In this document: piece by piece, positions 6,015 to 55,051 of the stretch | Position numbering within the stretch: the first letter of the stretch is position 1 | Layout: each line of letters begins with the position of its first letter | NCBI RefSeq assembly: GCF_988243305.1 | Contig: NZ_OZ547136.1 | Length of the DNA stretch: 64,000 nucleotides | Strand: one strand, 5' to 3' | Translations under genes and position numbers: made by a program | The notes under the pieces: generated by a model | What the model was told of the DNA's origin: nothing | What the model saw: only the letters and a program-made list of their open reading frames with translations | The model's database searches: none

Positions 6015-6737
6015 TTAAAACGGGAAATGAATTAGCTCAACGTCATCCGCCGTGACTTTCACCATTGAACCTTCCGTATGCCAGGCACCCAGCACGACGC
6101 GGAAAGCAGGTTGCTGATTGGCGATAAGTTCATGTACTGCCGGGCGATGGGTATGCCCGTGAATCAGCCATTGCACCTGATGTTTTTCCATCGCACTGAC
6201 CACCGCGTTTTGGTTAACGTCCATGATCGCCAGCGATTTACTGCTGTTGGCTTCTTTGCTGTTCGCTCGCATTCGCGCGGCAATGCGTTTGCGCACAAAC
6301 AACGGCAGGGCGAGGAATAGCGTCTGCAGCCACGGCTTGTGGACTTTGGCGCGAAAAGCCTGATAACCCGCGTCATCGGTGCACAGCGTGTCGCCATGCA
6401 TAATCAACACCCGACGACCATACAGTTCGAGCACCTTTTCTTCCGGCAATAACGTCATGCCGCTTTCACGGGCAAAGCGTTTGCCGAGCAGAAAATCACG
6501 GTTGCCATGAATGAAATAACAGGGAACGCCGGAATCGGACACCGCTTTGATCGCTGCCGCCATCTGGCGATGGAGTGGGTTGGGATCGTCGTCGCCAATC
6601 CACGCTTCAAACAGATCGCCAAGAATATACAGCGCGTCGGCCTTGCGGGCTTCCCCCGCTAAAAAACGCAGAAAACCGGCGGTGATCGCCGGTTCTTCCG
6701 CGCAGAGATGAAGATCTGCAATAAAGAGTGTCGCCAC
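6015..6737 (-). CDS. lpxH: UDP-2,3-diacylglucosamine pyrophosphatase, 240 aa
   Basis: Metallophosphoesterase motifs DLHL, GDLFE, GNRD, GHTH; start codon is GTG (MATLF...). Confidence 0.9.
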
Positions 6738-6739
6738 GA

Positions 6740-7234
6740 TTACTCGCTAACGGTCACGCTTTCAATGATAACGTCTTCTTTTGGCACGTCCTGGTGCATA
6801 CCGCTACGACCGGTTGCAACACCTTTGATTTTGTCTACCACGTCCATGCCTTCAACCACTTCAGCAAACACGCAGTAACCCCAACCTTGCAGGCTTTCGC
6901 CAGAGAAGTTCAGGAAGTCGTTATCAACCACGTTGATGAAGAACTGTGCAGTTGCAGAGTGCGGTGCCTGAGTACGGGCCATTGCCAGCGTACCACGGGT
7001 ATTTTTCAGACCGTTGTTGGCTTCGTTTTTGATCGGGTCTTTGGTGGTTTTTTGCTTCATGCCCGGTTCAAAACCGCCGCCCTGAATCATAAAGCCGTTG
7101 ATTACACGGTGGAAAATGGTGTTGTTGTAAAAACCTTCGCGGCAGTAGTCCAGGAAGTTTTTAACTGTTTCAGGTGCTTTATCGTCAAAAGTTTTGATGA
7201 CAATATCGCCGTGATTGGTGTGGAAAGTAACCAT
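6740..7234 (-). CDS. ppiB: peptidyl-prolyl cis-trans isomerase B (cyclophilin), 164 aa
   Basis: Cyclophilin-type sequence; sits 2 nt upstream of lpxH on the same strand. Confidence 0.95.
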
Positions 7235-7407
7235 TTTTGCATCCTGTTCCGTTTGATTGGTGCTTCAACCCGGTTCGGGTCATATATAGGGTGGTGTTAT
7301 AGCATAACCGCACGATCGGATCATCACGCAATGTATGCTGATTCGCGCGGGAAATATGGGTATTATACGCAACTCAATTACCCACACATGTCTAAACGGA
7401 ATCTTCG

Positions 7408-8793
7408 ATGCTAAAAATCTTCAATACTCTGACACGCCAAAAAGAGGAATTTAAGCCTATTCACGCCGGGGAAGTCGGCATGTACGTGTGTGGAATCACC
7501 GTTTACGATCTCTGTCATATCGGACACGGGCGTACCTTTGTTGCCTTTGACGTGGTTGCGCGTTACCTGCGTTTCCTCGGCTATAAGCTGAAGTATGTGC
7601 GTAACATTACCGATATCGATGACAAAATCATCAAACGCGCCAATGAAAATGGCGAAAGCTTTGTGGCGCTGGTGGATCGCATGATCGCCGAAATGCACAA
7701 AGATTTTGATGCTTTGAACATTCTGCGCCCGGATATGGAGCCGCGCGCGACGCACCATATCGCAGAAATTATTGAACTCACTGAACAACTGATCGCCAAA
7801 GGTCACGCTTATGTGGCGGACAACGGCGACGTGATGTTTGACGTACCGACCGATCCGACATATGGCGTGCTGTCGCGTCAGGATCTCGACCAGCTGCAGG
7901 CAGGCGCGCGCGTTGACGTGGTCGACGACAAACGCAACCCGATGGACTTCGTTCTGTGGAAGATGTCGAAAGAGGGCGAACCGAGCTGGCCGTCTCCGTG
8001 GGGCGCGGGCCGTCCAGGCTGGCACATTGAATGTTCGGCAATGAACTGCAAGCAGCTGGGTAACCACTTTGATATCCACGGCGGCGGTTCTGACCTGATG
8101 TTCCCGCACCACGAGAATGAAATCGCGCAGTCCACCTGTGCCCATGATGGTCAGTATGTAAACTACTGGATGCACTCCGGGATGGTGATGGTTGACCGCG
8201 AGAAGATGTCCAAATCGCTGGGTAACTTCTTTACCGTGCGCGATGTGCTGAAATACTACGACGCGGAAACCGTGCGTTACTTCCTGATGTCAGGCCACTA
8301 TCGCAGCCAGCTGAACTACAGCGAAGAGAACCTGAAGCAGGCACGCGCGGCGCTGGAGCGTCTCTACACTGCGCTGCGCGGCACAGATAAAACCGTTGCG
8401 CCTGCGGGTGGCGAAGCGTTTGAAGCGCGCTTTATTGAAGCGATGGATGACGATTTCAACACCCCGGAAGCCTATTCCGTGCTGTTTGATATGGCCCGTG
8501 AAGTGAACCGTCTGAAAGCAGAAGATATGGCAGCGGCGAACGCGATGGCGTCTCATCTGCGTAAACTTTCCGCCGTATTGGGCCTGCTGGAGCAAGAACC
8601 GGAAGCGTTCCTGCAAAGCGGCGCGCAGGCAGACGACAGCGAAGTGGCTGAGATTGAAGCGTTAATTCAACAGCGTCTGGATGCCCGTAAAGCGAAAGAC
8701 TGGGCGGCGGCAGATGCGGCGCGTGACCGTCTTAACGAGATGGGGATCGTGCTGGAAGATGGCCCGCAAGGGACCACCTGGCGTCGTAAGTAA
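7408..8793 (+). CDS. cysS: cysteinyl-tRNA synthetase, 461 aa
   Basis: Class I aaRS HIGH motif (CHIGHGRT) and KMSKS motif ([10 protein letters not shown]). Confidence 0.95.
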
Positions 8794-8804
8794 TTGCGCA
8801 ATTG

Positions 8805-8828
8805 CCGGATGCGAGTTTTCGCATCCGG
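8805..8828. terminator. hairpin between convergent cysS and ybcI (candidate bidirectional terminator)
   Basis: ccggatgcg-agtttt-cgcatccgg, 9-bp stem, directly after the cysS stop and abutting the ybcI stop; weak U-tract. Confidence 0.45.
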
Positions 8829-9350
8829 TTATCGTCTGCGCCACCACAACATTCCCATCAGTAGCATCCCCGGCAACCACACCCACATCAATTCGGAAAT
8901 AATCACCTGATGCCCGTACGCTGTGGTGTAACGAGACAATGCAAACGGCGCGACTTTAATCACCTGCCAGGGAGCGAAAAAGCGTTCATCTGACCACGGC
9001 CATAGCCAGCCAACGCCTTTACCACCAGTGGTTACCGAATCCAGCAAGCTGTGCGATAGCAATGAGACGGTTAAAAACAGCCAGCAGCGAATCAGCCCAG
9101 CCCTGAACCATCGACGCCCAATCAGCACACATAACAGCGGGACAACAAACGCAAACACCAGCGAATGGGTAAACCCGCGATGACCAAAAACATTGCCGTA
9201 AGCAACGCCAAATTTAAACGACAACACGTCGGCATCGGGCAGCATCGCCAGGATGATTCCGGCAAATAACAGACGCGGAGGGATGACTTTCGAACCCAAC
9301 CCTAAACCAATGCAAAGGGGAACGGCGGCGTGCGTAATAACGGTTGGCAT
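8829..9350 (-). CDS. ybcI: inner-membrane metal-dependent hydrolase-like protein (DUF457), 173 aa
   Basis: Hydrophobic 173-aa ORF; gene-order context. Confidence 0.8.
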   Translation of the reverse strand: MPTVITHAAVPLCIGLGLGSKVIPPRLLFAGIILAMLPDADVLSFKFGVAYGNVFGHRGFTHSLVFAFVVPLLCVLIGRRWFRAGLIRCWLFLTVSLLSHSLLDSVTTGGKGVGWLWPWSDERFFAPWQVIKVAPFALSRYTTAYGHQVIISELMWVWLPGMLLMGMLWWRRR

Positions 9351-9457
9351 GATGGTCGCTTCGGCAAAATGTCGATGCTATCAGCATGGATGAACGGGGC
9401 GTAGAGGGCAAAAGTCTGAAAAGAGAACCGGCCTGTTGATACAGGCCGGGAAAGGGA

Positions 9458-9670
9458 TCAGGCAACAACCTGTACGCTGTGACCTGCAAAACTCACTGTC
9501 TGACCGGCGACGATTTTGCAGCGTTTGCGCGTTTCAACCGCGCCGTCGACTTTCACCTGGCCTTCGGCAATCGCGATTTTCGCCTGCGCGCCGCTTTCGC
9601 TCCAGCCTTCCAGTTTCAGCAAGTCGCACAGCTCAACGTGCGGATGTTTACCTAAAGAAAATGTCGCCAT
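9458..9670 (-). CDS. ybcJ: S4-like RNA-binding protein, 70 aa
   Basis: Start re-picked at MATFSLGKHP (ORF track is 18 codons longer and would overlap folD); start codon abuts the folD stop. Confidence 0.75.
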   Translation of the reverse strand: MATFSLGKHPHVELCDLLKLEGWSESGAQAKIAIAEGQVKVDGAVETRKRCKIVAGQTVSFAGHSVQVVA

Positions 9671-9671
9671 G

Positions 9672-10538
9672 TTACTCACCCTGTGGATCATGATATTCAA
9701 CGCACGCCTGTAGCGTGTTTTCAATCAGCGTGGCAACCGTCATTGGGCCAACGCCGCCGGGAACAGGCGTAATGTATGAGGCGCGTTTAGCCGCGTCTTC
9801 AAACACGACGTCGCCCACAACTTTGCCATTTTCCAGACGGTTGATGCCAACATCAATCACAATTGCGCCTTCTTTGATCCAGTCACCAGGAATAAAGCCC
9901 GGCTTGCCGACGGCAACGATCAACAGATCGGCATTTTCTACGTGGTGACGCAGATTTTTAGTGAAACGGTGAGTCACGGTGGTGGTGCAACCTGCCAGCA
10001 GCAGTTCCATGCTCATTGGGCGACCGACGATATTCGATGCGCCAATCACCACGGCGTTAAGGCCGAAGGTATCAATGTTGTAACGCTCAAGCAGCGTGAC
10101 GATACCGCGCGGGGTGCAGGGACGCAGACGTGGCGCGCGCTGGCACAGACGACCGACGTTGTAAGGATGGAAACCGTCCACGTCTTTGTCCGGATGAATA
10201 CGTTCCAGCACTTTGACGTTATCAATACCCGCCGGTAACGGCAGTTGAACCAGAATGCCATCGATGGTGTTGTCGGCATTCAGCGCATCGATAAGCTCCA
10301 ACAGCTCCGCTTCGCTGGTGGTTTCCGGGAGGTCATAAGAGCGGGAGACGAACCCGACTTCTTCACAAGCCTTGCGTTTGCTTGCGACATAAATTTGCGA
10401 TGCAGGGTTACTACCCACCAGCACAACGGCCAGTCCTGGTGCCCGCAGTCCGGCTGCAATACGCGCCTGAACTTTTTGAGCAACTTCAGAGCGCACCTGC
10501 TGCGCAATCGTTTTACCGTCAATAATCTTTGCTGCCAT
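9672..10538 (-). CDS. folD: bifunctional methylene-THF dehydrogenase / methenyl-THF cyclohydrolase, 288 aa
   Basis: 288-aa FolD-like sequence with Rossmann-type NAD(P) region ([12 protein letters not shown]). Confidence 0.95.
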
Positions 10539-11017
10539 CAGAGAGAGGATTCCATCTGTTACGTAGGTCGAAGGGGATGCGCCTATTTTGTCAGAAGCGG
10601 GGCGCGCTGTCAGGTTTCGTTTCAGATTTATCGCGTGAAGCGACCTCTTGCGAAGGTTAGGCGCACCGTCGCTGAGGTCGCTGAGATTGAAAGCTTCATT
10701 TTTCGTCCATGATGGCGTTGTAAATCTGGAACTGACTTATTTCCTTGTCAAAGGATTAAGATAATTTAAGAAATACCTGACAATATAAAAAGAATTTTCA
10801 GCCTGGTAATTTACCGCTTCAGGTCTATATTTGTGTTGAATATATTTTGCGCGGAAGTATTCATCTAACGGGGCTCTCTATTTTTTAGAATAGAGTGCAT
10901 ATTTTCAATTAAGACATTCTTAGAGGATAAAAAGGAATTTACTACTATCAGTGTCTTAAATAAAGTAATCGGTTATATACGGATGTGGAGTCGATAAATG
11001 AGATTGAAGGAATATAT

Positions 11018-11560
11018 ATGAAATTAAGATTTATTTCGTCTGCGCTGGCCGCCGCACTATTCGCCGCTACGGGTAGTTATGCTGCCGTTGTAGATGGCGG
11101 TACAATTCACTTTGAAGGCGAACTGGTGAATGCTGCCTGTTCAGTGAATACTGACTCGGCAGACCAGGTTGTCACACTCGGTCAATATCGTACCGATATT
11201 TTCAATGCTGTTGGTAATACCTCTGCATTAATTCCATTCACTATACAGTTGAACGACTGCGATCCTGTCGTTGCCGCTAATGCTGCCGTTGCATTTTCTG
11301 GTCAGGCGGATGCAATCAATGATAATTTATTGGCCATTGCATCCAGTACTAATACAACAACAGCAACGGGTGTCGGTATTGAAATACTTGATAATACATC
11401 CGCAATTCTCAAACCTGATGGGAATAGCTTCTCAACCAACCAGAACTTGATCCCCGGGACCAACGTTCTTCATTTTTCTGCACGTTATAAAGGCACCGGT
11501 ACAAGTGCATCAGCAGGGCAAGCAAATGCTGACGCGACTTTTATTATGAGATACGAATAA
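11018..11560 (+). CDS. sfmA: type 1-like fimbrial major subunit, 180 aa
   Basis: Signal peptide then fimbrillin-like sequence; ATG at 11018 with GAAGGA RBS; AT-rich 480-bp upstream region. Confidence 0.85.
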
Positions 11561-11778
11561 TCAAAACCACGTTGTTTTGAATTATATATCACGTCTTATA
11601 ACAAAGTAATGTACCGGTTGTCTGAAGCGGTATGGTGGCAATGTAAATCGAAATCACGTTCACTTTGTATCATGCCGCTTTATTAAATGAAAAGGGAATG
11701 ATGTGTGTAAGAAACCAAAGCAATCATTTCTTTATACTCCTTATTTTTGCCGTCAGGAATACACAAGGCGTATTAACT

Positions 11779-22463: not shown

Positions 22464-24687
22464 TTTCGGACTCCAGTTGCGCAACCTTTTCTGTGTTTAA
22501 ACCTGCTTTGAGTAATAGTGATTGCATCGAAACTTGTAATTCGCGTTGAATTGTCAGGACGCGATCCAACGTTTCCTGGCTGATAACGCCTTCGGTGACC
22601 AAAAACTTGCCGAGCGGCAGAGAACTGCGTTCATGGCGCAATAACAACACGTTAATTGCTGAACGATTAATATGACCGAGCGTAGTCAGTATTTCGGCGA
22701 ACAGGAACTGATGCGGCACATATTGCCGCCAGATTTCACCGGCCTGCTGTTCCGTGAGCCACTGATGCTGAACTGCATTGTACAACATTGCCCGCGGATC
22801 GTGACCGCGTCGGCGTGCATACCAGTGGCGTAATCCGGTGACAATTTGTCCCCGCAGAACAATGACGTAACGCACTTTGCGTCCGACTTTACGCGTCAGG
22901 GCCGCCAGCGAAACCGGGTCAATACCATCTTCACTGCCGACAATTAACTCATCATTGTCCAGACGCAGCGGCAGTACCGCATAATGCAGCGCCACGGAGG
23001 CCGGCATTTCGGCAATCAGCGAGGAAGGGATCTGCCAGGCATCGATGGATTCCCACGCCACGCCGTTTTGCTCTGCCAGCGCCTGTGCCAGTTGCTCGGC
23101 GCTAATCAGCCCCTGCATCAGCATTGAACCGCCCAGGCGTAGACCTTCGACGCGATTACGCAGTGCTGTATCGAGTTGTTCTTCAGTGATGACCTGATTT
23201 TCCAGCAGGATTTGACCTAACGGGCGCAACGAGCGGGTATCGCCAGTCACGCTGGGGAAGTCATGCGTTGTTTTATCCCACGCCACTCGACGCGGATCGC
23301 CGTGTTGAAGTACCTGTTTTAACGCGCGCCAGTTGGCCATGAAGTTAATCAGGTTACCCCAGAAAAGACGCAGGACAGATAGCAGCCCCTGCGTCAGACC
23401 GTAGTAGCCAGTGACAAAAATCACCCGCTGCACGATGCGGTTAACCATCAAACCAAAGTTTAGCCACAGCAGGGTCATTAACCATGCGCTGCCGCTGAAA
23501 ATAGAAAGGAAATGCCAGGCATCGGGCCACAAACTTTCATACGCCAGTAACAGCAAAAGCTGGATCATCACCAGCATCGCGAGGAAGCTGACAAAGTTAC
23601 TGATTGCCCCTTTGCGGTCGCGCCAGAGAAAGTAGTTCAGCGTCAGGCTGGAGGTCCATTTGTGGGTTTTAAAGCCCTGGAAAACAATGCCGATGATCCA
23701 CCGAGATTTTTGTCGAACCGCAGTCGAAAAGGTATCGGGGAAATATTCGCGCACGCAGATCATGTTTGACGTCCGCGCATGCTGTAAAAATTTACGCTGC
23801 TCGCGTTCTTTGGCTTCGTCCACCACCGGAAAACGGACAAAAATTTCCGTCATACCTTTCTCTTTCAGGCGGAAGCCAATGTCGTAATCTTCAGTCAGAC
23901 TCTGCACGTCGAAAGCAATACCGTCACCGTCAGCTAACAGTGCGGTCACGGCGCGACGGCTGAAACAGGTACCGACGCCTGCGCTGGGCACCTGTCCGGC
24001 GAGGGCTTCACGCACCGGAACATCTTTGCCATGCAGTTCTGAAAACTCATCAATGTAGGTCATGCTGGTGAAGTGAGTCCATTCGCGTTCGAACGGATAC
24101 ACTGGGATCTGAATCAGATCTTTACGCTCGACCAGATAGTTGAACAGACGCAATTCCATCGGTGAAATCACATCTTCGGCGTCATGCAGAATAAAACCAG
24201 CAAAAGCGAAATTGGCGCTACGTTCAAATTGGGTGATGGCGTCCAGCACGTTGTTCAGACAGTCGGCTTTGCTGGTGGGGCCAGGACGCGCGCAGACTAC
24301 CTTATGCACGTTCGGGAAGCGAGCGCACACTTCGTCAACATCACGCTGAGTATCGGGGTCGTTGGGGTAGGTGCCAACAAAGATATGATAGTTTTCGTAG
24401 TCGAGCGTGGTCGCCGCCAGCTCGGCCATATTGCCGATGACGCCCGTTTCATTCCACGCCGGAACCATAATCGCTAACGGTTTTTCATCTGGTTTATACA
24501 GTTCGCGGTAACTCATTCGCGGGTAGCGGCGATAAACACTCAACTTGCGTTTAATGCGGCGTACCCAGTAGAAGACATCAATAAAAAAATCGTCCAGCCC
24601 GCTGATGAACATGATGACCGCTAACGTTATCGCGATTACTTTTAAGCCGTAGAGCCAGGTAGCAAAAACATCAAGAAGCCAGTCCAC
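22450..24687 (-). CDS. nfrB: inner-membrane family-2 glycosyltransferase NfrB (phage N4 adsorption protein B), 745 aa
   Basis: GT2 motifs DAED (HDAEDVISP) and QxxRW (QKSRW); transmembrane segments; 14-nt overlap with the nfrA start. Confidence 0.9.
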   Translation of the reverse strand: MDWLLDVFATWLYGLKVIAITLAVIMFISGLDDFFIDVFYWVRRIKRKLSVYRRYPRMSYRELYKPDEKPLAIMVPAWNETGVIGNMAELAATTLDYENYHIFVGTYPNDPDTQRDVDEVCARFPNVHKVVCARPGPTSKADCLNNVLDAITQFERSANFAFAGFILHDAEDVISPMELRLFNYLVERKDLIQIPVYPFEREWTHFTSMTYIDEFSELHGKDVPVREALAGQVPSAGVGTCFSRRAVTALLADGDGIAFDVQSLTEDYDIGFRLKEKGMTEIFVRFPVVDEAKEREQRKFLQHARTSNMICVREYFPDTFSTAVRQKSRWIIGIVFQGFKTHKWTSSLTLNYFLWRDRKGAISNFVSFLAMLVMIQLLLLLAYESLWPDAWHFLSIFSGSAWLMTLLWLNFGLMVNRIVQRVIFVTGYYGLTQGLLSVLRLFWGNLINFMANWRALKQVLQHGDPRRVAWDKTTHDFPSVTGDTRSLRPLGQILLENQVITEEQLDTALRNRVEGLRLGGSMLMQGLISAEQLAQALAEQNGVAWESIDAWQIPSSLIAEMPASVALHYAVLPLRLDNDELIVGSEDGIDPVSLAALTRKVGRKVRYVIVLRGQIVTGLRHWYARRRGHDPRAMLYNAVQHQWLTEQQAGEIWRQYVPHQFLFAEILTTLGHINRSAINVLLLRHERSSLPLGKFLVTEGVISQETLDRVLTIQRELQVSMQSLLLKAGLNTEKVAQLESENEGE

Positions 24688-24836
24688 ACAAAAACCTTAC
24701 ATTAACGCTGGTTATGTTTAGGGTGGCGTATATTAAGGTTTTTTATGAATTGTGACAGCTTTTTACCATTAATAGGTATGACTATTGCGGCACGTTATTT
24801 TTACACTGGTTATAAAAGTTGCCGTTTGCTGAATAA

Positions 24837-26279: not shown

Positions 26280-26952
26280 CCGGCACCTCAAGCATGTAAC
26301 CCACGCCGCGCACGGTTTGAATCAGCTTCGGCTCAAAGTCGTTGTCGATTTTGCCGCGTAGCCGCTTCACCGCCACATCAATGGCGTTAGTGTCGCTGTC
26401 GAAATTCATGTCCCATACCTGCGAGGCGATAAGCGAGCGGGGCAGCACTTCGCCCTGATGGCGAAGGAAAAACTCCAGCAGAGTAAATTCTTTACTGGTC
26501 AGAGTGATGCGCGTGCCGCTGCGGGTGACTTTGCGGCTGACGAGATCGACCATCAGATCGGCAACCTGAAACTGACTTTCGATAATCACCGCCGCCCCGC
26601 GCCGCAGGAGAGTGCGCACCCGCGCCAGCAGTTCAGCAAAAGCGAACGGCTTCACCAGATAGTCATCGGCCCCCAACTCCAGCCCCTTGACGCGATGTTC
26701 AATGGTGCCAAGCGCGGTAAGCAACAGAATCGGCATCCCTTTATTGGCGGAGCGCAACATGCGCACGATATCCCAGCCGTTCACGTCCGGCAGCATAATA
26801 TCGAGGATTATCAGGTCATAATCACCGGTCATCGCCAGATGGTAGCCATTCAGCCCATTGTCGGCCAAATCGACCACAAAACCGGCTTCGGTTAACCCTT
26901 TGGTCAAGTATTCTCCGGTTTTCTTTTCATCTTCGACAATCAACAGTTTCAT
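26269..26952 (-). CDS. cusR: OmpR-family response regulator, 227 aa
   Basis: Receiver domain ([20 protein letters not shown]) plus winged-helix output domain. Confidence 0.95.
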
Positions 26953-33241: not shown

Positions 33242-33342
33242 AAGCAGGATACCCGGTTTAACCGTGTGGATTGTGTCTTGCGACGATGGGCACTAAATGT
33301 TAAAAGGTGCCCCTCAACAAAAAAGACACACAGGGGAAAGGC

Positions 33343-34719
33343 GTGAAAAACGCGTCAACCGTATCGGAAGATACTGCGTCGAATCAAGAGCCGACGCTTC
33401 ATCGCGGATTACATAACCGTCATATTCAACTGATTGCGCTGGGTGGCGCAATTGGTACTGGTCTGTTTCTTGGCATTGGCCCGGCGATTCAGATGGCGGG
33501 TCCGGCTGTATTGCTGGGCTACGGCGTCGCCGGGATCATCGCTTTCCTGATTATGCGCCAGCTCGGCGAGATGGTGGTCGAAGAGCCGGTATCCGGTTCA
33601 TTTGCCCACTTTGCCTATAAATACTGGGGACCGTTTGCGGGCTTCCTCTCTGGCTGGAACTACTGGGTGATGTTCGTGCTGGTGGGAATGGCAGAGCTGA
33701 CCGCTGCGGGCATCTATATGCAGTACTGGTTCCCGGATGTTCCAACGTGGATTTGGGCTGCCGCCTTCTTTATTATCATCAACGCCGTTAACCTGGTGAA
33801 CGTGCGCTTATATGGCGAAACCGAGTTCTGGTTTGCGCTGATAAAAGTGCTGGCAATCATCGGTATGATCGGCTTTGGCCTGTGGCTGCTGTTTTCTGGT
33901 CACGGCGGCGAGAAAGCCAGTATCGACAACCTCTGGCGCTACGGTGGTTTCTTTGCCACCGGCTGGAATGGGCTGATTTTGTCGCTGGCGGTGATTATGT
34001 TCTCCTTCGGCGGTCTGGAGCTGATTGGGATTACTGCCGCTGAAGCGCGCGATCCGGAAAAAAGCATTCCGAAAGCGGTAAATCAGGTGGTGTATCGCAT
34101 CCTGCTGTTTTATATCGGTTCACTGGTAGTTTTACTGGCACTCTATCCGTGGGTGGAAGTGAAATCCAACAGTAGCCCGTTTGTGATGATTTTCCATAAT
34201 CTCGACAGCAACGTGGTAGCTTCTGCGCTGAACTTCGTCATTCTGGTAGCATCGCTGTCAGTGTATAACAGCGGGGTTTACTCTAACAGCCGCATGCTGT
34301 TTGGCCTTTCTGTGCAGGGTAATGCGCCGAAGTTTTTGACTCGCGTCAGCCGTCGCGGCGTGCCGATTAACTCGCTGATGCTTTCCGGAGCGATCACTTC
34401 GCTGGTGGTGTTAATCAACTATCTGCTGCCGCAAAAAGCGTTTGGTCTGCTGATGGCGCTGGTGGTAGCAACGCTGCTGTTGAACTGGATTATGATCTGC
34501 CTGGCGCATCTGCGTTTTCGCGCGGCGATGCGACGTCAGGGACGTGAAACACAGTTTAAGGCGCTGCTCTATCCGTTCGGCAACTATCTCTGCATCGCCT
34601 TCCTCGGCATGATTTTGCTGCTGATGTGCACGATGGATGATATGCGCTTGTCAGCGATTCTGCTGCCAGTGTGGATTGTATTCCTGTTTGTAGCGTTTAA
34701 AACGCTGCGTCGGAAATAA
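33343..34719 (+). CDS. pheP: phenylalanine-specific APC-family permease, 458 aa
   Basis: APC permease sequence; start re-picked at GTG 33343 (MKNASTVSEDTAS) with AGGGGAAAGG RBS. Confidence 0.85.
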   Translation: MKNASTVSEDTASNQEPTLHRGLHNRHIQLIALGGAIGTGLFLGIGPAIQMAGPAVLLGYGVAGIIAFLIMRQLGEMVVEEPVSGSFAHFAYKYWGPFAGFLSGWNYWVMFVLVGMAELTAAGIYMQYWFPDVPTWIWAAAFFIIINAVNLVNVRLYGETEFWFALIKVLAIIGMIGFGLWLLFSGHGGEKASIDNLWRYGGFFATGWNGLILSLAVIMFSFGGLELIGITAAEARDPEKSIPKAVNQVVYRILLFYIGSLVVLLALYPWVEVKSNSSPFVMIFHNLDSNVVASALNFVILVASLSVYNSGVYSNSRMLFGLSVQGNAPKFLTRVSRRGVPINSLMLSGAITSLVVLINYLLPQKAFGLLMALVVATLLLNWIMICLAHLRFRAAMRRQGRETQFKALLYPFGNYLCIAFLGMILLLMCTMDDMRLSAILLPVWIVFLFVAFKTLRRK

Positions 34720-34786: not shown

Positions 34787-36082
<1,296 letters not shown>

Positions 36083-37635: not shown

Positions 37636-38763
<1,128 letters not shown>

Positions 38764-39093: not shown

Positions 39094-39282
39094 ATGAAGC
39101 CCCAGGACGATATTTCTATCAACCCTGGGGCTGCCACTCCAAACCCAAACAATTTGGATGGTAGTCCCTTCTTCGCATGGAGGCAATATAAACATGCTGA
39201 CGAAATATGCCCTTGCGGCAGTCATAGTGCTGTGTTTGACGGTGCTGGGATTTACGCTTCTGGTCGGAGACTCGCTGTGTGA
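39094..39282 (+). CDS. Mok-like overlapping reading frame, 62 aa, copy 1
   Basis: ORF starts 100 nt upstream of hok and overlaps it out of frame, as in hok/sok systems. Confidence 0.5.
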
Positions 39283-39346
39283 GTTTACGGTGAAGGAACG
39301 TAATATTGAGTTTAAGGCTGTTCTCGCTTACGAACCGAAGAAGTAG
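39194..39346 (+). CDS. hokE: Hok-family membrane toxin, 50 aa, copy 1
   Basis: [50 protein letters not shown] is a typical Hok sequence; GGAGG RBS 11 nt upstream. Confidence 0.85.
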
Positions 39347-39597: not shown

Positions 39598-39786
39598 ATG
39601 AAGCCCCAGGACGATATTTCTATCAACCCTGGGGCTACCTACCCAAACCTGAACAATTTGGATGGTAGTCCCTTCTTCGCATGGAGGCAATATAAACATG
39701 CTGACGAAATATGCCCTTGTGGCAGTCATAGTGCTGTGTTTAACGGTGCTGGGATTTACGCTTCTGGTCGGAGACTCGCTGTGTGA
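39598..39786 (+). CDS. Mok-like overlapping reading frame, 62 aa, copy 2
   Basis: Paralog of copy-1 mok with a few substitutions (AATPNPN to ATYPNLN, D49N). Confidence 0.5.
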
Positions 39787-39850
39787 GTTTACGGTGAAGG
39801 AACGTAATATTGAGTTTAAGGCTGTTCTCGCTTACGAACCGAAGAAGTAG
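39698..39850 (+). CDS. hokE: Hok-family membrane toxin, 50 aa, copy 2
   Basis: Same as copy 1 with one substitution (A8V); intact ORF and RBS. Confidence 0.85.
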
Positions 39851-40620: not shown

Positions 40621-40657
40621 GTCGACCATATTAGAGACTGATGACAAACGCAAAACT

Positions 40658-40755: not shown

Positions 40756-40794
40756 ATGAACTACGCGCACTTTGTCAACAATCTGACGTTAGCA

Positions 40795-43035: not shown

Positions 43036-43203
43036 TGTTTTATTCCTGCATTTTTGCCACGAATTGCAACTGTCGGGCATGGTCGTCATCAATACGACGC
43101 ACCCCGCTACCGCGAAAACCTTTGATCCTGAAAGACACGCAGTGCAGTTGGTTAATTAATGTCCGCGCTTCCCACGGCGCGCCATTACGCTATTGCAAAT
43201 GCA

Positions 43204-43233
43204 AATAGTTATCAATAATATTATCAATATATT
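43204..43233. promoter_or_regulatory. Fur-box-like AT-rich hexamer repeats in the fepA-fes divergent promoter
   Basis: aatagttatcaataatattatcaatatatt contains overlapping GATAAT / ATTATC-like hexamers in a divergent iron-uptake promoter. Confidence 0.55.
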
Positions 43234-43277
43234 TCTGCAATCAATGAAAAATTGCACAGTAAACATGGGGTTATGGT

Positions 43278-44480
43278 GTGACGGCGTTAAAAGTAGGAAG
43301 TGAGAGCTGGTGGCAGTCGAAACATGGCCCGGAATGGCAGCGTCTGAATGACGAAATGTTTGAGGTCACTTTCTGGTGGCGTGATCCCCAAGGTTCTGAA
43401 GAATACTCGACGATAAAGCGCGTATGGGTCTACATCACTGGTGTGACCGATCACCATCAGAACAGCCAGCCCCAGTCGATGCAGCGAATTGCAGGTACCA
43501 ACGTCTGGCAGTGGACGACACAACTTAATGCCAACTGGCGCGGCAGCTACTGTTTTATTCCCACCGAACGCGATGACATTTTTTCTGCACCATCCCCCGA
43601 TCGCCTCGAATTACGTGAAGGCTGGCGAAAACTATTACCCCAGGCGATAGCCGATCCGCTGAATCCACAAAGCTGGAAAGGCGGGCGAGGGCACGCTGTT
43701 TCTGCACTCGAAATGCCGCAAGCGCCTCTGCAACCGGGATGGGATTGTCCGCAAGCGCCAGAAATACCTGTCAAAGAAATTATCTGGAAAAGTGAACAGT
43801 TGAAAAATTCACGCCGTGTATGGATTTTTACCACCGGCGATGCAACAGCAGAAGAACGCCCGCTGGCAGTTTTGCTTGATGGCGAATTTTGGGCGCAGAG
43901 TATGCCCGTCTGGCCTGCGCTGACTTCGCTGACCCATCGTCGGCAACTTCCTCCCGCCGTGTATGTGTTGATCGACGCTATCGACACCACGCACCGCGCT
44001 CACGAACTGCCGTGTAATGCGGATTTCTGGCTGGCAGTACAGCAAGAGTTATTACCCCTGGTGAAAGCTATTGCCCCTTTTAGCGATCGCGCCGATCGCA
44101 CCGTGGTCGCCGGGCAGAGTTTTGGTGGGCTTTCCGCGCTGTATGCCGGACTGCACTGGCCTGAACGCTTTGGCTGTGTATTAAGCCAGTCAGGATCGTA
44201 CTGGTGGCCGCATCGGGGCGGGCAGCAAGAAGGTGTTTTACTTGAGCAACTTAAAGCTGGTCAAGTTAGTGCCGAAGGTCTGCGCATTGTGCTGGAAGCG
44301 GGTATTCGCGAGCCGATGATCATGCAGGCCAATCAGGCGCTGTATGCGCAATTACACCCCATAAAAGAATCCATTTTCTGGCGTCAGGTTGACGGCGGAC
44401 ATGATGCGCTTTGTTGGCGCGGTGGCTTGATGCAGGGGCTAATCGACCTCTGGCAACCACTTTTCCATGACAGGAGTTGA
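43278..44480 (+). CDS. fes: enterochelin esterase, 400 aa (GTG start; a shorter internal-ATG form is possible)
   Basis: Esterase GxSxG motif (GQSFGG); ORF begins with GTG at 43278. Confidence 0.85.
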   Translation: MTALKVGSESWWQSKHGPEWQRLNDEMFEVTFWWRDPQGSEEYSTIKRVWVYITGVTDHHQNSQPQSMQRIAGTNVWQWTTQLNANWRGSYCFIPTERDDIFSAPSPDRLELREGWRKLLPQAIADPLNPQSWKGGRGHAVSALEMPQAPLQPGWDCPQAPEIPVKEIIWKSEQLKNSRRVWIFTTGDATAEERPLAVLLDGEFWAQSMPVWPALTSLTHRRQLPPAVYVLIDAIDTTHRAHELPCNADFWLAVQQELLPLVKAIAPFSDRADRTVVAGQSFGGLSALYAGLHWPERFGCVLSQSGSYWWPHRGGQQEGVLLEQLKAGQVSAEGLRIVLEAGIREPMIMQANQALYAQLHPIKESIFWRQVDGGHDALCWRGGLMQGLIDLWQPLFHDRS

Positions 44481-44482
44481 AT

Positions 44483-44701
44483 ATGGCATTCAGTAATCCC
44501 TTCGATGATCCGCAGGGAGCGTTTTACATTTTGCGCAATGCGCAGGGGCAATTCAGTCTGTGGCCGCAACAATGCGCCTTACCGGCAGGCTGGGACGTTG
44601 TGTGTCAGCCGCAGTCACAGGCGTCCTGCCAGCAGTGGCTTGAAGCCCACTGGCGTACTCTGACACCGGCGAATTTCACCCAGTTGCAGGAGGCACAATG
44701 A
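44483..44701 (+). CDS. ybdZ: MbtH-like protein, 72 aa
   Basis: Small ORF (MAFSNPFDDPQGAFYILRN...) directly upstream of the NRPS gene; stop overlaps the entF start (ATGA). Confidence 0.85.
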   Translation: MAFSNPFDDPQGAFYILRNAQGQFSLWPQQCALPAGWDVVCQPQSQASCQQWLEAHWRTLTPANFTQLQEAQ

Positions 44702-48579: not shown

Positions 48580-48592
48580 ATTAATATTATCC

Positions 48593-48629
48593 ATAAACCC
48601 ATAATTACAGGAAATGATTATGGGTTTAT
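48593..48629 (+). terminator. perfect 13-bp inverted repeat hairpin downstream of entF (candidate terminator)
   Basis: ataaacccataat-N11-attatgggtttat followed by catttatttgattt; starts 14 nt after the entF stop. Confidence 0.5.
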
Positions 48630-48794
48630 CATTTATTTGATTTATAAGTTTGGTGGATATTTCTCTTAAATAGAGTGAATGTTGCATTCAGTGGAAGGAA
48701 TTTACAAACTTCAGCTTCGGATAATTCTCACCAACTGGTAAAGTGAGCGCCGTGGAGATTTCCCCCTATTGGACTCATTTTCAGGTTATACCCC

Positions 48795-49928
48795 ATGTCA
48801 TCACTGAATATTAAACAGGGAAGTGACGCTCATTTTCCCGAGTATCCTCTGGCGTCGCCCAGTAATAATGAAATTGATTTACTTAATCTAATCGCAGTTT
48901 TATGGCGGGCCAAAAAAACGGTCATGGCGGTCATTTTTGCATTTGCCTGCGCAGGTTTACTGATCTCTTTCATCCTGCCGCAAAAATGGACCAGCGCGGC
49001 GGTTGTCACGCCTCCAGAACCTGTTCAGTGGCAAGAGCTGGAGAAAACATTCACTAAGCTTCGAGTGCTGGATCTGGATATCAAAATTGATCGTACAGAA
49101 GCATTTAACCTGTTTATCAAGAAGTTTCAGTCGGTTAGCTTGCTGGAAGAGTACCTGCGTTCATCACCTTATGTGATGGACCAATTAAAAGAGGCGAAAA
49201 TCGACGAACTGGATTTGCATCGCGCAATTGTCGCATTGAGCGAAAAAATGAAAGCGGTTGATGACAATGCCAGTAAGAAAAAAGATGAACCGTCACTTTA
49301 TACCTCCTGGACGCTAAGTTTTACCGCGCCAACCAATGAAGAGGCGCAAACCGTTTTGAGCGGGTATATCGATTATATCTCTGCTCTGGTGGTGAAAGAG
49401 TCGATAGAAAATGAGCGCAATAGACTGGAGCTTAAAACCCAGTTTGAAAAAGAAAAACTGGCTCAGGACCGCATTAAAATGAAAAATCAACTTGATGCAA
49501 ACATTCAGCGCCTCAATTATTCACTCGACATTGCCAACGCGGCAGGAATTAAAAAGCCCGTTTACAGTAATGGTCAGGCCGTTAAAGATGACCCCGATTT
49601 CTCTATTTCTCTCGGCGCAGACGGTATTGAACGCAAACTGGAAATTGAAAAAGCGGTTACTGACGTTGCGGAACTGAACGGTGAATTACGTAATCGTCAG
49701 TATCTTGTCGAGCAATTAACAAAAGCAAATATCAACGATGTGAATTTTACGCCGTTTAAATATCAGTTAAGCCCGTCATTGCCAGTGAAAAAAGACGGTC
49801 CGGGTAAGGCGATTATTGTGATCCTTTCTGCGATGGTCGGCGGGATGGTGGCTTGTGGTGGCGTGCTGTTGCGCTATGCGATGGCATCCAGAAAACAGGA
49901 TGCCGTGATGGAAGAGCACTTAGTTTAA
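48795..49928 (+). CDS. fepE: polysaccharide co-polymerase (Wzz-like) protein FepE, 377 aa
   Basis: N- and C-terminal TM segments flanking a coiled-coil periplasmic domain; position after entF. Confidence 0.9.
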   Translation: MSSLNIKQGSDAHFPEYPLASPSNNEIDLLNLIAVLWRAKKTVMAVIFAFACAGLLISFILPQKWTSAAVVTPPEPVQWQELEKTFTKLRVLDLDIKIDRTEAFNLFIKKFQSVSLLEEYLRSSPYVMDQLKEAKIDELDLHRAIVALSEKMKAVDDNASKKKDEPSLYTSWTLSFTAPTNEEAQTVLSGYIDYISALVVKESIENERNRLELKTQFEKEKLAQDRIKMKNQLDANIQRLNYSLDIANAAGIKKPVYSNGQAVKDDPDFSISLGADGIERKLEIEKAVTDVAELNGELRNRQYLVEQLTKANINDVNFTPFKYQLSPSLPVKKDGPGKAIIVILSAMVGGMVACGGVLLRYAMASRKQDAVMEEHLV

Positions 49929-50740
49929 ATCTTGGCAGTTGAAGGTGCCGTTCGTCCGAGCGGCACCACGAGCGGAGTTCCGGCTACCGGATCGTCAATA
50001 ATCATGCAGCGCAGACCATAAATGCGCTCGATCAATTCAGCAGTGACAATCTCCTTCGGCGCTCCCTGAGCAACAATTTTCCCTTCCCGCAATGCAATCA
50101 AATGGCTGGCGTAACGACAGGCCTGATTAAGATCGTGCAGCACCGCCGCCAGGGTATAGCCTTTCTCGCGGTTCAGTTCGCTTAACAGTTCCAGCAAATC
50201 AATCTGATGACTGATATCCAGCCAGGTCGTTGGTTCATCGAGCAGCATAATTGCCGTTTCCTGGGCCAGCACCATTGCTATCCACGCTCGCTGGCGTTGT
50301 CCGCCAGAAAGGGTATCCACGCTTTGATCCGCCAGATGGGTGATTCCCGTGGCCTGCATCGCTTTTGTGACGGCCTCTTCATCTTCTTTGCGCCAGCGGG
50401 TAAACAGCGGTTGATGCGGGTAACGCCCACGCGCCACCAGCTCCTGCACGGTGATATCTCCCGGCGTGGTGGCGTTTTGCGCCAACAGGCCAATCCGGCG
50501 TGCAACCTCTTTACTGGCGTAATGTTGAATGTGCTCACCATCCAGCCAGACATGCCCGTGAGCAGGCGTCATCAGGCGGCTTAAGGTACGCAGTAACGTG
50601 GATTTACCGCAGCCATTTGGCCCGATAATTGCCGTGAAGTGACCATCAGGTATTTCTACAGTCAGATTTTCTGCAACGGTATATTTGCCATATCCGAGGG
50701 TTAACTGTTCGCCGCGCAAACGGGCTACTGATTCGGTCAT
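49925..50740 (-). CDS. fepC: ferric enterobactin ABC transporter ATP-binding protein, 271 aa
   Basis: Walker A GPNGCGKST, ABC signature LSGGQRQR, Walker B LLDEPTT; start re-picked at MTESVARLRGEQ. Confidence 0.9.
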   Translation of the reverse strand: MTESVARLRGEQLTLGYGKYTVAENLTVEIPDGHFTAIIGPNGCGKSTLLRTLSRLMTPAHGHVWLDGEHIQHYASKEVARRIGLLAQNATTPGDITVQELVARGRYPHQPLFTRWRKEDEEAVTKAMQATGITHLADQSVDTLSGGQRQRAWIAMVLAQETAIMLLDEPTTWLDISHQIDLLELLSELNREKGYTLAAVLHDLNQACRYASHLIALREGKIVAQGAPKEIVTAELIERIYGLRCMIIDDPVAGTPLVVPLGRTAPSTAKI

Positions 50741-51729
50741 TTTTTGCGAGACTCCTGAATTAACAAGACGATAAGGTAAATACCACCGAGGCTGACGGTA
50801 ACGACGCCAACCGGAAGTTGATACGGCATAAACAGTTGTTGGGCGCATAGATCGGCCGCCAGCAGTAACAACGCCCCGCACAGCGCCGCCTGGGTCAGCC
50901 CCCAGCGAGCGGTGCCGCTAATGCGCCGGGCAATGTGTGGCGCGACTAAAGCAATAAAGGAAATCGGCCCGGCAAGCGCCGTTGCCGCAGCGGTGAGCAC
51001 CACTGCCACCAGCATCATTAACAGCCGCGAACGTTCGACGCTGACGCCCAACGCACACGCGGTATCATCGCCCATTTCCAGCAAGCGCATCCGGCGTACC
51101 AGTAAGGCGGCGGCAATGAGCATCAATATAATGATGGGCGCGGAAGGCGAGGTTTTTGCCCACGTCAGGCCGTTGAGCGATCCGGCATTCCACAAACCCG
51201 CTGTTAGCGCCGTTTCTAAAGACGCTTTCAGCAACAACCAGGTATTAAAGGCCACCAGCATGGCGCGAACACCGATACCGATAATAATCAACCGAAAGGT
51301 GTCGATACCGTTACGCCAGGCAAGCAGCCAGACCAGCAGCGAGGTGACAATGCCGCCCACCATTGCTGCCAGGGCGATAGCCGTCAGGTCCTGACCAAAC
51401 AGCACCATCGCCACCAGCACGCCGCTCCACGCCCCGGTGTTAAAGCCCATTACGTCAGGGCTGCCGAGCGGGTTACGCATCAGCGACTGAAAAATCGCGC
51501 CGCTGACGCCCAGAGCCGCGCCAATTAACAGCGCCATCAGCACGCGTGGTAAACGCCATTCGGTGACCACCATCGTCATACTGCGCGGCGCATCGCCCAT
51601 CAGCGCGGCGAATATCTGCGAGGTTTCCAGCGTGACGGCACCGCTGCGTAATCCCCAGATACCTGCAACCACACAGGCGGTAATTAGCAGCAAACAGGTG
51701 ATGATTAATCGGCGAGAGACGTAAATCAT
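50737..51729 (-). CDS. fepG: ferric enterobactin ABC transporter permease, 330 aa
   Basis: FecCD-family permease; 4-nt overlaps with fepC and fepD. Confidence 0.9.
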   Translation of the reverse strand: MIYVSRRLIITCLLLITACVVAGIWGLRSGAVTLETSQIFAALMGDAPRSMTMVVTEWRLPRVLMALLIGAALGVSGAIFQSLMRNPLGSPDVMGFNTGAWSGVLVAMVLFGQDLTAIALAAMVGGIVTSLLVWLLAWRNGIDTFRLIIIGIGVRAMLVAFNTWLLLKASLETALTAGLWNAGSLNGLTWAKTSPSAPIIILMLIAAALLVRRMRLLEMGDDTACALGVSVERSRLLMMLVAVVLTAAATALAGPISFIALVAPHIARRISGTARWGLTQAALCGALLLLAADLCAQQLFMPYQLPVGVVTVSLGGIYLIVLLIQESRKK

Positions 51730-52730
51730 GCGCCACCTCGCGTTTTACGTCGCACGAGGAAGATCAGCACCGGTGCGCCAATAAAGGCACTGACTACAGA
51801 AACGCGCAGTTCGCCGGGCACAATCACCCGTCCGATGATATCGGCAAACAGCAGCAGGGCAGGGGTAGCAAGCAGCGTGACGGGCAGCGACCAGCGATGA
51901 TCGGCACCCACCAACCAACGTGCCATATGCGGCATCATCAGGCCAATAAAGGCAATCGGGCCAACTACCGCCGTCGCACTACCACAAAGCACGGTAATCG
52001 CCAGCAGACCAATCAACTGTGTGCGCGCCACGCGACTACCCAGCGCCGTCGCGGTGTCACTGCCGAGGCTTAAACTGTTCAGCGCGCGGCTCAGTAATAG
52101 CGCGGTTGCTCCGGCGATCAGCACCGGGATCAGCACCACTTTTAAGGTATGTAGATTGCGAATATCCAGCGAACCGGCTTGCCAGAAACGCAACTGATCG
52201 TAGACGTCAGGATTAAGCAGGGCGATGCCGCTGGTCAGCCCTTCCAGCACCGCCGCCAGTGCCACGCCCGCCAGGGTTAAACGCACCGGACTTAACTGCC
52301 CGCCGCCCTGGCTGCCGGTAAAGGCAACAATCAATGAGGCCACCAGCGCCCCGGCGAAGGCCATCGCCAGTTGTTCCTGTGCGGAAGAGTAACCAAACAG
52401 CGCCGCACCCAGCACAATGGCAAAGCTGGCTCCGGCGTTCACGCCAAGCAAGCCGGGGTCGGCAAGTGGGTTTCGGGTGAGGGTTTGCATCAGCGCCCCG
52501 GCAAGCCCAAGCGCACCGCCTGCCAGTAAACCGGCAAGGGTGCGCGGCAGACGGGCGTCGAGCACAATGGTGCAGTCGGCGCTCTGGCAGGTGCCGGAGA
52601 GCGCCTCCAGCACTACGGAAGCGGGGAGTGATTTTGCCCCAATGAGCAGGCTTAATGCCGTCGCGATAATCAGTAATAACAGCAATCCGGGCACGGCAAT
52701 GGCGCGTGTCACGGCAACAGAACCAGACAT
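51726..52730 (-). CDS. fepD: ferric enterobactin ABC transporter permease, 334 aa
   Basis: FecCD-family permease; start re-picked at MSGSVAVTRAIAV. Confidence 0.9.
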   Translation of the reverse strand: MSGSVAVTRAIAVPGLLLLLIIATALSLLIGAKSLPASVVLEALSGTCQSADCTIVLDARLPRTLAGLLAGGALGLAGALMQTLTRNPLADPGLLGVNAGASFAIVLGAALFGYSSAQEQLAMAFAGALVASLIVAFTGSQGGGQLSPVRLTLAGVALAAVLEGLTSGIALLNPDVYDQLRFWQAGSLDIRNLHTLKVVLIPVLIAGATALLLSRALNSLSLGSDTATALGSRVARTQLIGLLAITVLCGSATAVVGPIAFIGLMMPHMARWLVGADHRWSLPVTLLATPALLLFADIIGRVIVPGELRVSVVSAFIGAPVLIFLVRRKTRGGA

Positions 52731-52742
52731 ACGAACTTCCAT

Positions 52743-52767
52743 GATAATGAAATTAATTATCGTTATC
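52743..52767. promoter_or_regulatory. Fur-box-like element in the fepD-entS divergent promoter
   Basis: gataatgaaattaattatcgttatc (GATAAT...ATTATC arrangement). Confidence 0.55.
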
Positions 52768-52840
52768 GATCTTATTTGGATATGTTAGCATGTGCAGCCT
52801 AAGAATAGGTATTTAAAATATTTGATGGCAAGGCATTGTA

Positions 52841-54091
52841 ATGAATAAACAATCCTGGCTGCTTAACCTCAGCCTGTTGAAAACGCACCCGGCGTTTCGC
52901 GCAGTATTCCTCGCTCGTTTTATCTCAATTGTGTCTCTGGGTTTGCTCGGCGTCGCGGTGCCGGTGCAGATCCAGATGATGACGCATTCTACCTGGCAGG
53001 TGGGGCTTTCGGTAACGCTGACCGGCGGGGCGATGTTTGTTGGCCTGATGGTCGGCGGTGTGCTGGCGGATCGCTATGAGCGCAAAAAAGTGATTTTGCT
53101 GGCGCGCGGCACCTGTGGCATTGGCTTCATTGGACTGTGCCTGAACGCGCTGCTGCCGGAGCCATCTTTGCTGGCAATCTATTTACTCGGATTATGGGAT
53201 GGTTTTTTCGCATCGCTTGGCGTTACGGCGCTACTGGCGGCGACACCTGCACTGGTAGGGCGTGAAAACTTAATGCAGGCCGGGGCGATCACCATGTTGA
53301 CTGTGCGCCTGGGATCGGTGATTTCGCCTATGATTGGTGGTTTACTGCTGGCGACTGGCGGCGTAGCCTGGAACTACGGGCTGGCGGCGGCGGGCACGTT
53401 TATTACCTTGCTACCGTTGTTAAGCCTTCCGGCGTTACCACCACCACCGCAGCCGCGTGAGCATCCGTTGAAATCATTACTGGCAGGATTTCGTTTTCTA
53501 CTCGCCAGCCCGCTGGTAGGAGGGATTGCGCTGTTGGGGGGGTTATTGACGATGGCGAGCGCGGTGCGGGTACTGTATCCGGCGCTGGCTGACAACTGGC
53601 AGATGTCGGCGGCACAGATTGGTTTTCTCTATGCGGCGATCCCGCTCGGCGCGGCTATTGGCGCGTTAACCAGCGGGAAGCTGGCGCATAGCGCGCGACC
53701 AGGGTTATTGATGCTGCTCTCCACGCTGGGATCGTTCCTCGCCATTGGTCTGTTTGGCCTGATGCCGATGTGGATTTTAGGCGTGGTTTGTCTGGCGCTA
53801 TTCGGCTGGCTGAGCGCGGTCAGCTCGTTGCTGCAATACACAATGCTGCAAACGCAAACCCCGGAAGCGATGTTAGGGCGGATTAACGGTTTGTGGACGG
53901 CGCAAAACGTGACGGGCGATGCCATAGGCGCGGCGCTGCTGGGCGGTTTGGGCGCGATGATGACACCGGTTACTTCCGCAAGCGCGAGCGGTTTTGGATT
54001 GTTGATTATCGGCGTGTTGTTGTTGCTGGTGCTGGTGGAGTTGCGACGTTTTCGCCAGACGCCGCCGCAGGTGACAGCGTCCGACAGTTAA
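52841..54091 (+). CDS. entS: MFS enterobactin exporter, 416 aa
   Basis: 12-TM MFS-like sequence; divergent from fepD. Confidence 0.9.
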
Positions 54092-54094
54092 TGC

Positions 54095-55051
54095 TTAAAA
54101 CAGCGCCTTAAGTCGTTCCAGCACTTGCATGGCGCTGTAGTAATCCAGTCGGAACGTCTCGGTTCCCAGCGCATAAACCTGCTTGTTTTGTACTGCGGGC
54201 AGGTGCGCGAGCAGTGGATTGGCATAAATAGCATCGGCATCTTTCTGATCACCGGCGAACAGGAATAGTGACTCGCCATTTAACCCTGCAGCCAGATTTT
54301 CTCCACCAAGCTGAATGATGTCATGGCGTTTGCCCTGGCTTTGGCTGGCGTTTAACCCTGCTGGCAACTTCGCCAGCGTAAAGCCGAGTTGTTCCAGCAT
54401 CTGCCCTTGTGCTGATTCCGGCGTCCAGAGATTGGCACTGTGCGCGGCGGCGGTATAGACAATGGCAGTGACCGGCTGCGGCGGTAATTTGATTTGCTCT
54501 TTCGCCGCTGCCAGTTGCTTATCAAACTGTGCAATCCGCTCTGCCGCTTGTTTCTCATGCCCGGTAATTTCGCCAAGTTGCGTTAACAGCGACTGCCAGC
54601 TTTTGTCGTCGTAATTGATGATTAATGTCGGGGCGATGGTGGAAAGCTGATCGTATAGCGCCAGCGCCGAATCGCCGCCGGTCGCGCTAATTAAAATCAG
54701 ATCCGGCATTTGCGCGGCAACGGCTTCGGCACTTGGTTCACCGATATAGAGTCGTTGCAATTTGCGTTCTTTCGCTACCTTGCTCCACTGGCGTAAAAAG
54801 CCCTGGTCATCCGCGACGCGGTTATTTGGCGTGGTCGCGCCGCTGGCAATCACCGGAGCATCAATCGCCAGCAGTGAGCCAGTCAGGGTGATGCTGGTGG
54901 AAACAATACGCTGCGGCTGGCTTTCCAGGGTATGAGTGCCCCGGCTGTCAGTAATCTGACGCGGCCAGTCGGCGGCCTGAACTGCGACTATTCCTGAAAG
55001 CAAAAGTCCTGTTAATAGAAGGGCGTTGCGGTAGAGCGAGGCGAGTCTCAC
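54095..55051 (-). CDS. fepB: periplasmic ferric enterobactin-binding protein, 318 aa (GTG start)
   Basis: Signal peptide plus siderophore-binding protein sequence; start codon is GTG with GGAAG RBS. Confidence 0.9.

Follow-up and report, generated by a model that had tools for sequence, protein, structure and literature searches.

In a 64,000-nucleotide (nt) stretch of contig NZ_OZ547136.1 (RefSeq assembly GCF_988243305.1), hereafter the window, we analyzed the genes that start with GTG rather than ATG. The window is a segment of the E. coli chromosome (~97-99% identity to complete E. coli genomes), and five of its genes, lpxH, nfrB, pheP, fes and fepB, carry a GTG at the annotated start. We are highly confident that these are ordinary bacterial genes with GUG-initiated translation. 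An earlier note on this DNA had proposed GTG initiation for lpxH, pheP, fes and fepB; the codons lie where it placed them and the RefSeq starts agree. The proposal holds for all four, although its list was incomplete, nfrB having been left out. These starts are already annotated and already known, and there is nothing new in them.

Annotated starts of the coding sequences (CDS) of three RefSeq genomes were projected onto the window by BLAST, and the codon found at each position was read. Among the 54 genes mapped in this way, 49 start with ATG and five with GTG, and the reference start codon is kept in every one of them (54/54); with sfmH (ATG) added, GTG opens 5 of 55 complete genes. Usage of GTG/GUG has been put at ~14% of starts (PMC9841429). 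At this rate 7.7 GTG starts are expected in 55 genes and five are observed (P(X>=5)=0.90), which makes GTG usage unremarkable: GTG starts are not enriched in the window. For the four genes named above, RefSeq/PGAP annotates the same GTG starts in E. coli 042 and in Z1323HEC0462, and for pheP (b0576), fes (b0585) and fepB (b0592) both the start and the protein length also equal those of the curated K-12 MG1655 record. For lpxH (b0524 in K-12) and nfrB (b0569), the E. coli 042 RefSeq annotation gives the starts and lengths seen in the window, and the INRI-seq oligos, which represent K-12 start regions, match the window. The start contexts share 99-100% identity with the closest annotated genomes. 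The gene models of the window can be trusted at the five GTG starts.

For each gene we listed the in-frame ATG, GTG and TTG codons that lie between the upstream stop and roughly codon 115, together with the pairing energy of the preceding sequence to the 3' end of 16S rRNA. In all five the conserved coding region has the GTG at its 5' boundary, and no in-frame codon further upstream would make a better start (in pheP a second GTG lies upstream, and is excluded by peptide and initiation data). The statement that GTG is the only possible start is thus right for lpxH as far as codon 58, for fepB as far as codon 16, and for fes upstream of Met27, but not for pheP, which has two in-frame GTGs. A sensible ribosome-binding site had also been claimed for each gene. 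This can be upheld for pheP, fes and fepB, where the Shine-Dalgarno (SD) sequence pairs at -4.3 to -6.5 kcal/mol with a spacing of 6-7 nt, whereas lpxH has only a weak GAG (-3.0 kcal/mol).

The GTG start of pheP (33343..33345, plus strand; CDS 33343-34719, 458 amino acids (aa)) has been experimentally shown in K-12. TRAINSPOTTER, a deformylation-assisted N-terminomics study of E. coli K-12, reports the N-terminal PheP peptide MKNASTVSEDTASNQEPTLHR at the database-annotated GTG start NC_000913:601959-601961, in a row flagged 'Ribo-RET, INRI' (Table S1, PMC13245402). At the same start INRI-seq gives 20.8-29.8 counts per million (CPM) in 5/5 replicates (TRUE) and Ribo-RET a value of 28.0 (TRUE) (Table S2, PMC9825163), and the K-12 pheP sequence used in those studies is that of the window. 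The start region reads ...CAGGGGAAAGGC-GTG-AAAAAC and includes a purine-rich SD, AGGGG, at 33332-33336 (-6.5 kcal/mol). Downstream, no ATG occurs before codon 50, and a start there would remove the beginning of the Pfam AA_permease domain of this APC-family amino-acid permease (PF00324, residues 27-454, E-value 3e-129), because this domain opens at residue 27, near the first transmembrane segment. That the peptide opens with Met also disposes of the concern, voiced in the earlier note, that the open reading frame (ORF) track displays these genes with an 'M': fMet-tRNA decodes an initiator GUG, and the displayed residue is right.

Initiation of fepB (CDS 54095-55051, minus strand, 318 aa) at its GTG (55049..55051) is strongly supported. 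The start, which is that of RefSeq and of K-12, lies in the context ...ACAGGAAGCTGATTT-GTG-AGACTC, 7 nt after the SD AGGAAG (55059..55064, minus strand), and is directly followed by a signal peptide. A stop codon 6 nt upstream of the GTG closes the frame on that side; beyond the GTG, the first candidates are a TTG that falls midway through the signal peptide (codon 16) and then an ATG at codon 114. INRI-seq shows an in vitro initiation peak at the annotated GTG (16.5-27.0 CPM, 5/5 replicates, TRUE), and there is no Ribo-RET peak (PMC9825163); in rich medium, where Fur represses the gene, none would be expected. To place this start in a wider context, we used FepG as query in a scan of a genome collection, which yielded 80 loci, all from different Enterobacteriaceae species and all extending to fes and fepB; these species are phylogenetically related, and the counts given here and below are not independent. 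All loci with a usable FepB N-terminus (65/65 species) have a GTG before the signal peptide, placed 7-9 nt after a conserved ACAGGA, the core of the SD. The spacer and the codons that follow vary, and the signal peptide is conserved from the GTG onward. Structural matches agree with these boundaries: PDB 2m6k, a mature-form chain, matches from query residue 26 onward, where the signal peptide ends, the chain of PDB 3tlk aligns over all 318 residues, and Pfam Peripla_BP_2 (PF01497) covers residues 55-297.

Upstream of the fepB SD, 26-44 nt before the start, lies a Fur-box-like sequence, GAAAATGAGAAGCATTAAC (55077..55095, minus strand), which is conserved across genera and matches the Fur-box consensus, GATAATGATAATCATTATC, at 15/19 positions. 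An upstream ORF ending on the GTGA of the fepB start was considered and rejected, the upstream ATGs being in another frame and inside the Fur box.

The start of fes (CDS 43278-44480, plus strand, 400 aa), the enterochelin esterase gene, at the GTG 43278..43280 is supported by comparative and structural data. This codon, also the start in RefSeq and K-12, is the 3' GTG of a GTGTG, in the context ...GGGGTTATGGT-GTG-ACGGCG (within ATGGTGTGA); a stop lies 18 nt upstream, and no start other than the GTG precedes the ATG at codon 26 (Met27). It is preceded at 6 nt by the SD GGGGT (43267..43271, plus strand; -5.4 kcal/mol), for which most other genera have GAGGT or GGGGT. Across 64 species the N-terminus of Fes can be aligned, with G7, W11, W12 and P18 invariant (39 orthologues) and S8 and G17 nearly so. 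The start with the best SD, 4-8 codons upstream of G7, is GTG in 49 of these species, ATG in nine, which take in Klebsiella, Raoultella and Salmonella loci, and TTG in six; a conserved GRGGT SD precedes it by 4-8 nt in nearly all of them. An in-frame ATG that Citrobacter has two codons further upstream is only 1 nt away from the SD. As in the rest of the gene, variation in codons 2-26 of fes is biased to the third position (entropy 0.88/0.92/1.34 bits), and the 45 nt upstream of the start have a flat profile (1.61/1.67/1.62 bits). PDB 2b20/3c87 (Shigella) carry all 400 residues, 2b20 being near-identical throughout (E-value 8.7e-278), and the match to Salmonella 3mga begins at query residue 3 and shows 'NY' in place of the E. 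coli 'EM'. The N-terminal peptide predicted for the 400-aa protein is (M)TALKVGSESWWQSK.

An ATG-GTG-TGA mini-ORF spans the fes start (43273..43281, plus strand), consisting of a two-codon ORF and a GTG-TGA start-stop. As a conserved reinitiation device it was rejected, because E. coli and Escherichia sp. L006 are the only two of the 64 species that carry it, and it is probably incidental. A promoter scan of the fepA-fes intergenic region returned no fes promoter and a single match on the minus strand, on the fepA side.

The sequence of lpxH (CDS 6015-6737, minus strand, 240 aa), the gene of UDP-2,3-diacylglucosamine diphosphatase, a calcineurin-like phosphoesterase, leaves little choice of start: its GTG (6735..6737), the mapped RefSeq start, is forced by ORF structure and domain boundary together. 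In the start region, ...GAGTAATC-GTG-GCGACACTC, a stop lies 12 nt upstream of the GTG, and the next ATG, GTG or TTG is at codon 58. Pfam Metallophos (PF00149) covers residues 2-199 and is aligned from profile position 2, LpxH structures (E. coli, Klebsiella and Pseudomonas PDB chains) align one to one from residue 1, and the N-terminus is identical to that of the E. coli chains 8s7f, 8qjz and 5wly. In this enzyme family the N-terminal D-x-H motif (D8, H10) binds metal. Only 2 nt separate the GTG from the ppiB stop TAA (6742-6740), which is itself preceded by the weak GAG remnant of an SD (6745-6743; together 6740..6745, minus strand). In the lpxH gene of Klebsiella pneumoniae, found through an exact protein match, a GTG start likewise comes right after the ppiB stop, with one extra spacer base (...GAGTAATTC-GTG-GCGACA). 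Because the SD is weak and the GTG so close to the ppiB stop, lpxH is probably translationally coupled to ppiB.

The fifth gene, nfrB (CDS 22450-24687, minus strand, 745 aa), starts with the GTG 24685..24687 in a gtGTG context, preceded by the SD TAAGG (24695-24699, minus strand), and it appears among gtGTG-starting genes with the SD given as UAAGG (Kohl et al., 2022, Table 3, PMC9841429). The next in-frame candidate is an ATG at codon 25, which, on our reading of the sequence, appears to fall within a hydrophobic N-terminal segment.

Other starts have to be weighed for pheP and fes. A mechanical longest-ORF rule would begin pheP at the upstream GTG 33307..33309 (plus strand), which is in frame with no stop in between, and give a protein of 470 aa, mis-starting the gene by 12 codons. 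This start is scarcely credible. The SD before it is weak (-2.4 kcal/mol), both RefSeq and K-12 annotate 458 aa, the Ribo-RET and INRI-seq peaks sit at 33343, and the K-12 peptide opens with Met at that codon, where an internal GTG would yield Val; since Met at a GTG codon comes only from initiator tRNA, read-through from 33307 is excluded as the sole source of the protein. A peptide such as PLNKKDTQGKGVK, spanning 33307-33343, would be specific to the 470-aa product. The remark that GTG starts affect automated ORF calling needs correction: annotation pipelines already call these starts, and only the longest-ORF rule overshoots. Elsewhere in the window the same rule lengthens many genes, among them fepC (318 aa against 271 annotated), ylbF (302 against 271), purE (178 against 169), entC (395 against 391) and entE (538 against 536), and several of these overshoots open at spurious GTG or TTG codons.

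For fes, the earlier note had offered an internal ATG as an alternative, in which case the protein would be made from Met27 (43356..43358, plus strand; 374 aa) and the upstream GTG would be an over-extension of the annotation. In its favour, the Met27 codon is ATG, the accession of K-12 Fes has reached version.2, and the earlier K-12 model had 374 aa; moreover the Enterochelin_N domain (PF11806, residues 29-155, followed by the alpha/beta esterase domain PF00756 at residues 189-390) opens only at residue 29, and the GTG has neither an INRI-seq nor a Ribo-RET peak. However, Met27 is itself poorly conserved, being encoded by ATG in only 3/64 species, and what precedes it is conserved: four invariant positions fall within residues 7-18, codons 2-26 show a coding-type substitution pattern, and a conserved SD keeps a fixed spacing from the upstream start. 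In an AlphaFold2 model (39-sequence alignment, mean predicted local distance difference test score (pLDDT) 86.4), a helix is predicted at residues 9-13 and a strand at 19-24 that directly abuts the strand at 27-35, with mean pLDDT of 94 at residues 11-20 and 95 at residues 21-30. SD pairing ahead of this ATG is poor (-2.4 kcal/mol), and INRI-seq lists no alternative start for fes (Table S3, PMC9825163). Sole use of Met27 is thus highly unlikely, and the historical short Fes model should not be revived. A somewhat less remote variant is that E. coli specifically makes two proteoforms, of 400 aa from the GTG and 374 aa from Met27. E. coli fes does have an ATG at codon 27, and downstream in-frame alternative starts are common in this species (101 sites in TRAINSPOTTER, PMC13245402); nevertheless, the INRI-seq alternative-site table has no fes peak at +78, no SD precedes this lineage-specific ATG, and the 374-aa form would be without one predicted strand of the N-terminal domain, which leaves the coexistence of both forms quite improbable.

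We observe in passing that residues 1-28 of Fes (43278-43361) are outside PF11806, which begins just past Met27, although conservation and predicted structure extend over residues 7-24. It may be speculated that the start of the domain model at residue 29 reflects the old truncated gene model.

Several points weigh against a uniform reading of the five genes as GUG-initiated. Concerning fes, the disputed N-terminal segment is uncovered by domain models, pairing of GGGGU requires a G-U wobble, and the comparison relies on related species. The cells used for ribosome profiling were iron-replete, a state in which Fur represses fes and fepB. At fes, Kohl et al. (2022; PMC9841429) found no canonical SD of 4 nt or more, and the annotated fes start has no INRI-seq or Ribo-RET peak, a single INRI-seq replicate giving 5.1 CPM and the others 0 (PMC9825163); low efficiency in vitro could account for the missing peak. 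Concerning lpxH, the SD is very weak, and its annotated start has no peak in either data set, with one out-of-frame INRI-seq peak at +134; nfrB lacks a peak at its annotated start as well (PMC9825163). N-terminal proteomics and ribosome profiling, which had been suggested as a check, confirm the GTG of pheP (peptide, Ribo-RET and INRI-seq) and support that of fepB (INRI-seq), and give no peak for fes, lpxH and nfrB. Of the five genes only pheP is present in TRAINSPOTTER Table S1, where fes, fepB, lpxH and nfrB are absent (PMC13245402), none of the five is mentioned in the TetRP supplements (Nakahigashi, 2016), and a literature search for papers on the GTG starts of fes and pheP found nothing relevant.

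In the reading favoured here, the 30S subunit is placed by the SD 6-7 nt upstream in pheP, fes, fepB and nfrB, and in lpxH probably by ribosomes terminating at the ppiB stop. Initiator fMet-tRNA reads GUG by first-position wobble, so that the protein opens with (formyl-)Met and not Val. Initiation at GUG is several-fold weaker than at AUG, ~3.5-fold in the reporter of Kohl et al. (2022; PMC9841429), and these starts would set modest translation rates. We infer that fes and lpxH use their GTG in vivo, and the lowered initiation efficiency may have functional relevance.

The constancy of the fepB start deserves separate mention. In the same set of loci ATG is equally constant at neighbouring genes (ybdZ 63/63, entS 74/74, entC 72/72, entE 71/72), whereas at the start of fepG (50737-51729, minus strand) the homologous position is ATG in 43 species and GTG in 27. 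The difference in start-codon constancy between fepB and fes gives p ~1e-5 in a rough Fisher test, which overstates independence given the relatedness of the species. Since fepB keeps GTG in all species while the 7-nt spacer and the next codons vary, and since one G-to-A change would give a stronger ATG, the codon might be held as GTG by selection and not drift, a weak or initiation factor 3 (IF3)-sensitive start tuning FepB against its divergently transcribed partners; we put this forward as a tentative possibility, somewhat short of an even chance. If it is true, the periplasmic enterobactin-binding protein would be balanced against those partners through the fepB GTG. Purifying selection on start-codon identity is a general view, which the constancy of fepB fits and does not extend. 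The fepB leader differs in K-12 MG1655, where a ~183-bp GC-rich repeat-like insertion (GGGGAGAGGGTTAGGGTGAGGGG...) lies between the Fur box and the SD (26541-26723 of the K-12 locus, L005; corresponding to ~55079-55081 of the window). It is absent from the window, and the fepB-entC spacer is 374 bp in K-12 and 188 bp in the window. E. whittamii (L009) likewise differs at this insertion point.

With respect to its gene content, the window has the order fdrA-ylbEF-ybcF-purKE-lpxH-ppiB-cysS-ybcIJ-folD-sfm-fimZ-envY-ybcH-nfrAB-cusSRCFBA-pheP-ybdG-nfsB and, after an interval of further genes, entD-fepA-fes-ybdZ-entF-fepE-fepCGD-entS-fepB-entCEBAH-cstA-ybdD-hcxA. By megablast of two stretches, the region is present in essentially all 5,426 complete E. 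coli genomes at 95-99% identity. The best genome match to the window extends over 23 kb at 98.7%; for K-12 the identity in the ent/fep region is 97.0%. As the closest of the 5,426 genomes reach only ~98.7-98.8% over the stretches tested, the source lineage is not closely represented among them. One locus labelled 'E. coli SCPM-O-B-8794' (L008) is 92.5% identical and probably belongs to another Escherichia species. K-12 carries in this region the DLP12 prophage and an IS186 next to hokE, and the window is without both. The hokE toxin gene, a single copy followed by IS186 in K-12, is present in the window as two tandem copies (39194-39346 and 39698-39850, plus strand), for each of which an antisense hypothetical ORF is annotated in related genomes.

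Finally, the five genes can be compared with systems already described. Ambiguous gtGTG/GUGUG starts form a class to which fes and nfrB belong, both being among the 12 E. coli genes listed with the 3' GTG annotated by Kohl et al. (2022; PMC9841429), who made no experimental test of either gene; the window sequences are the same. Within this class, the competing 5' GTG of fes is directly followed by TGA, and no overlapping protein can therefore arise from it. The wider class of GUG-initiated E. coli genes includes, for example, cra, lacI and the 50 GTG starts that TRAINSPOTTER confirmed by N-terminomics, pheP being one of these confirmed cases. In these genes too the conserved coding region opens with GTG, the SD lies 6-7 nt away and the first residue is Met. 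Apart from lpxH, which has almost no SD and follows the ppiB stop by 2 nt, the five genes show no material difference from them.

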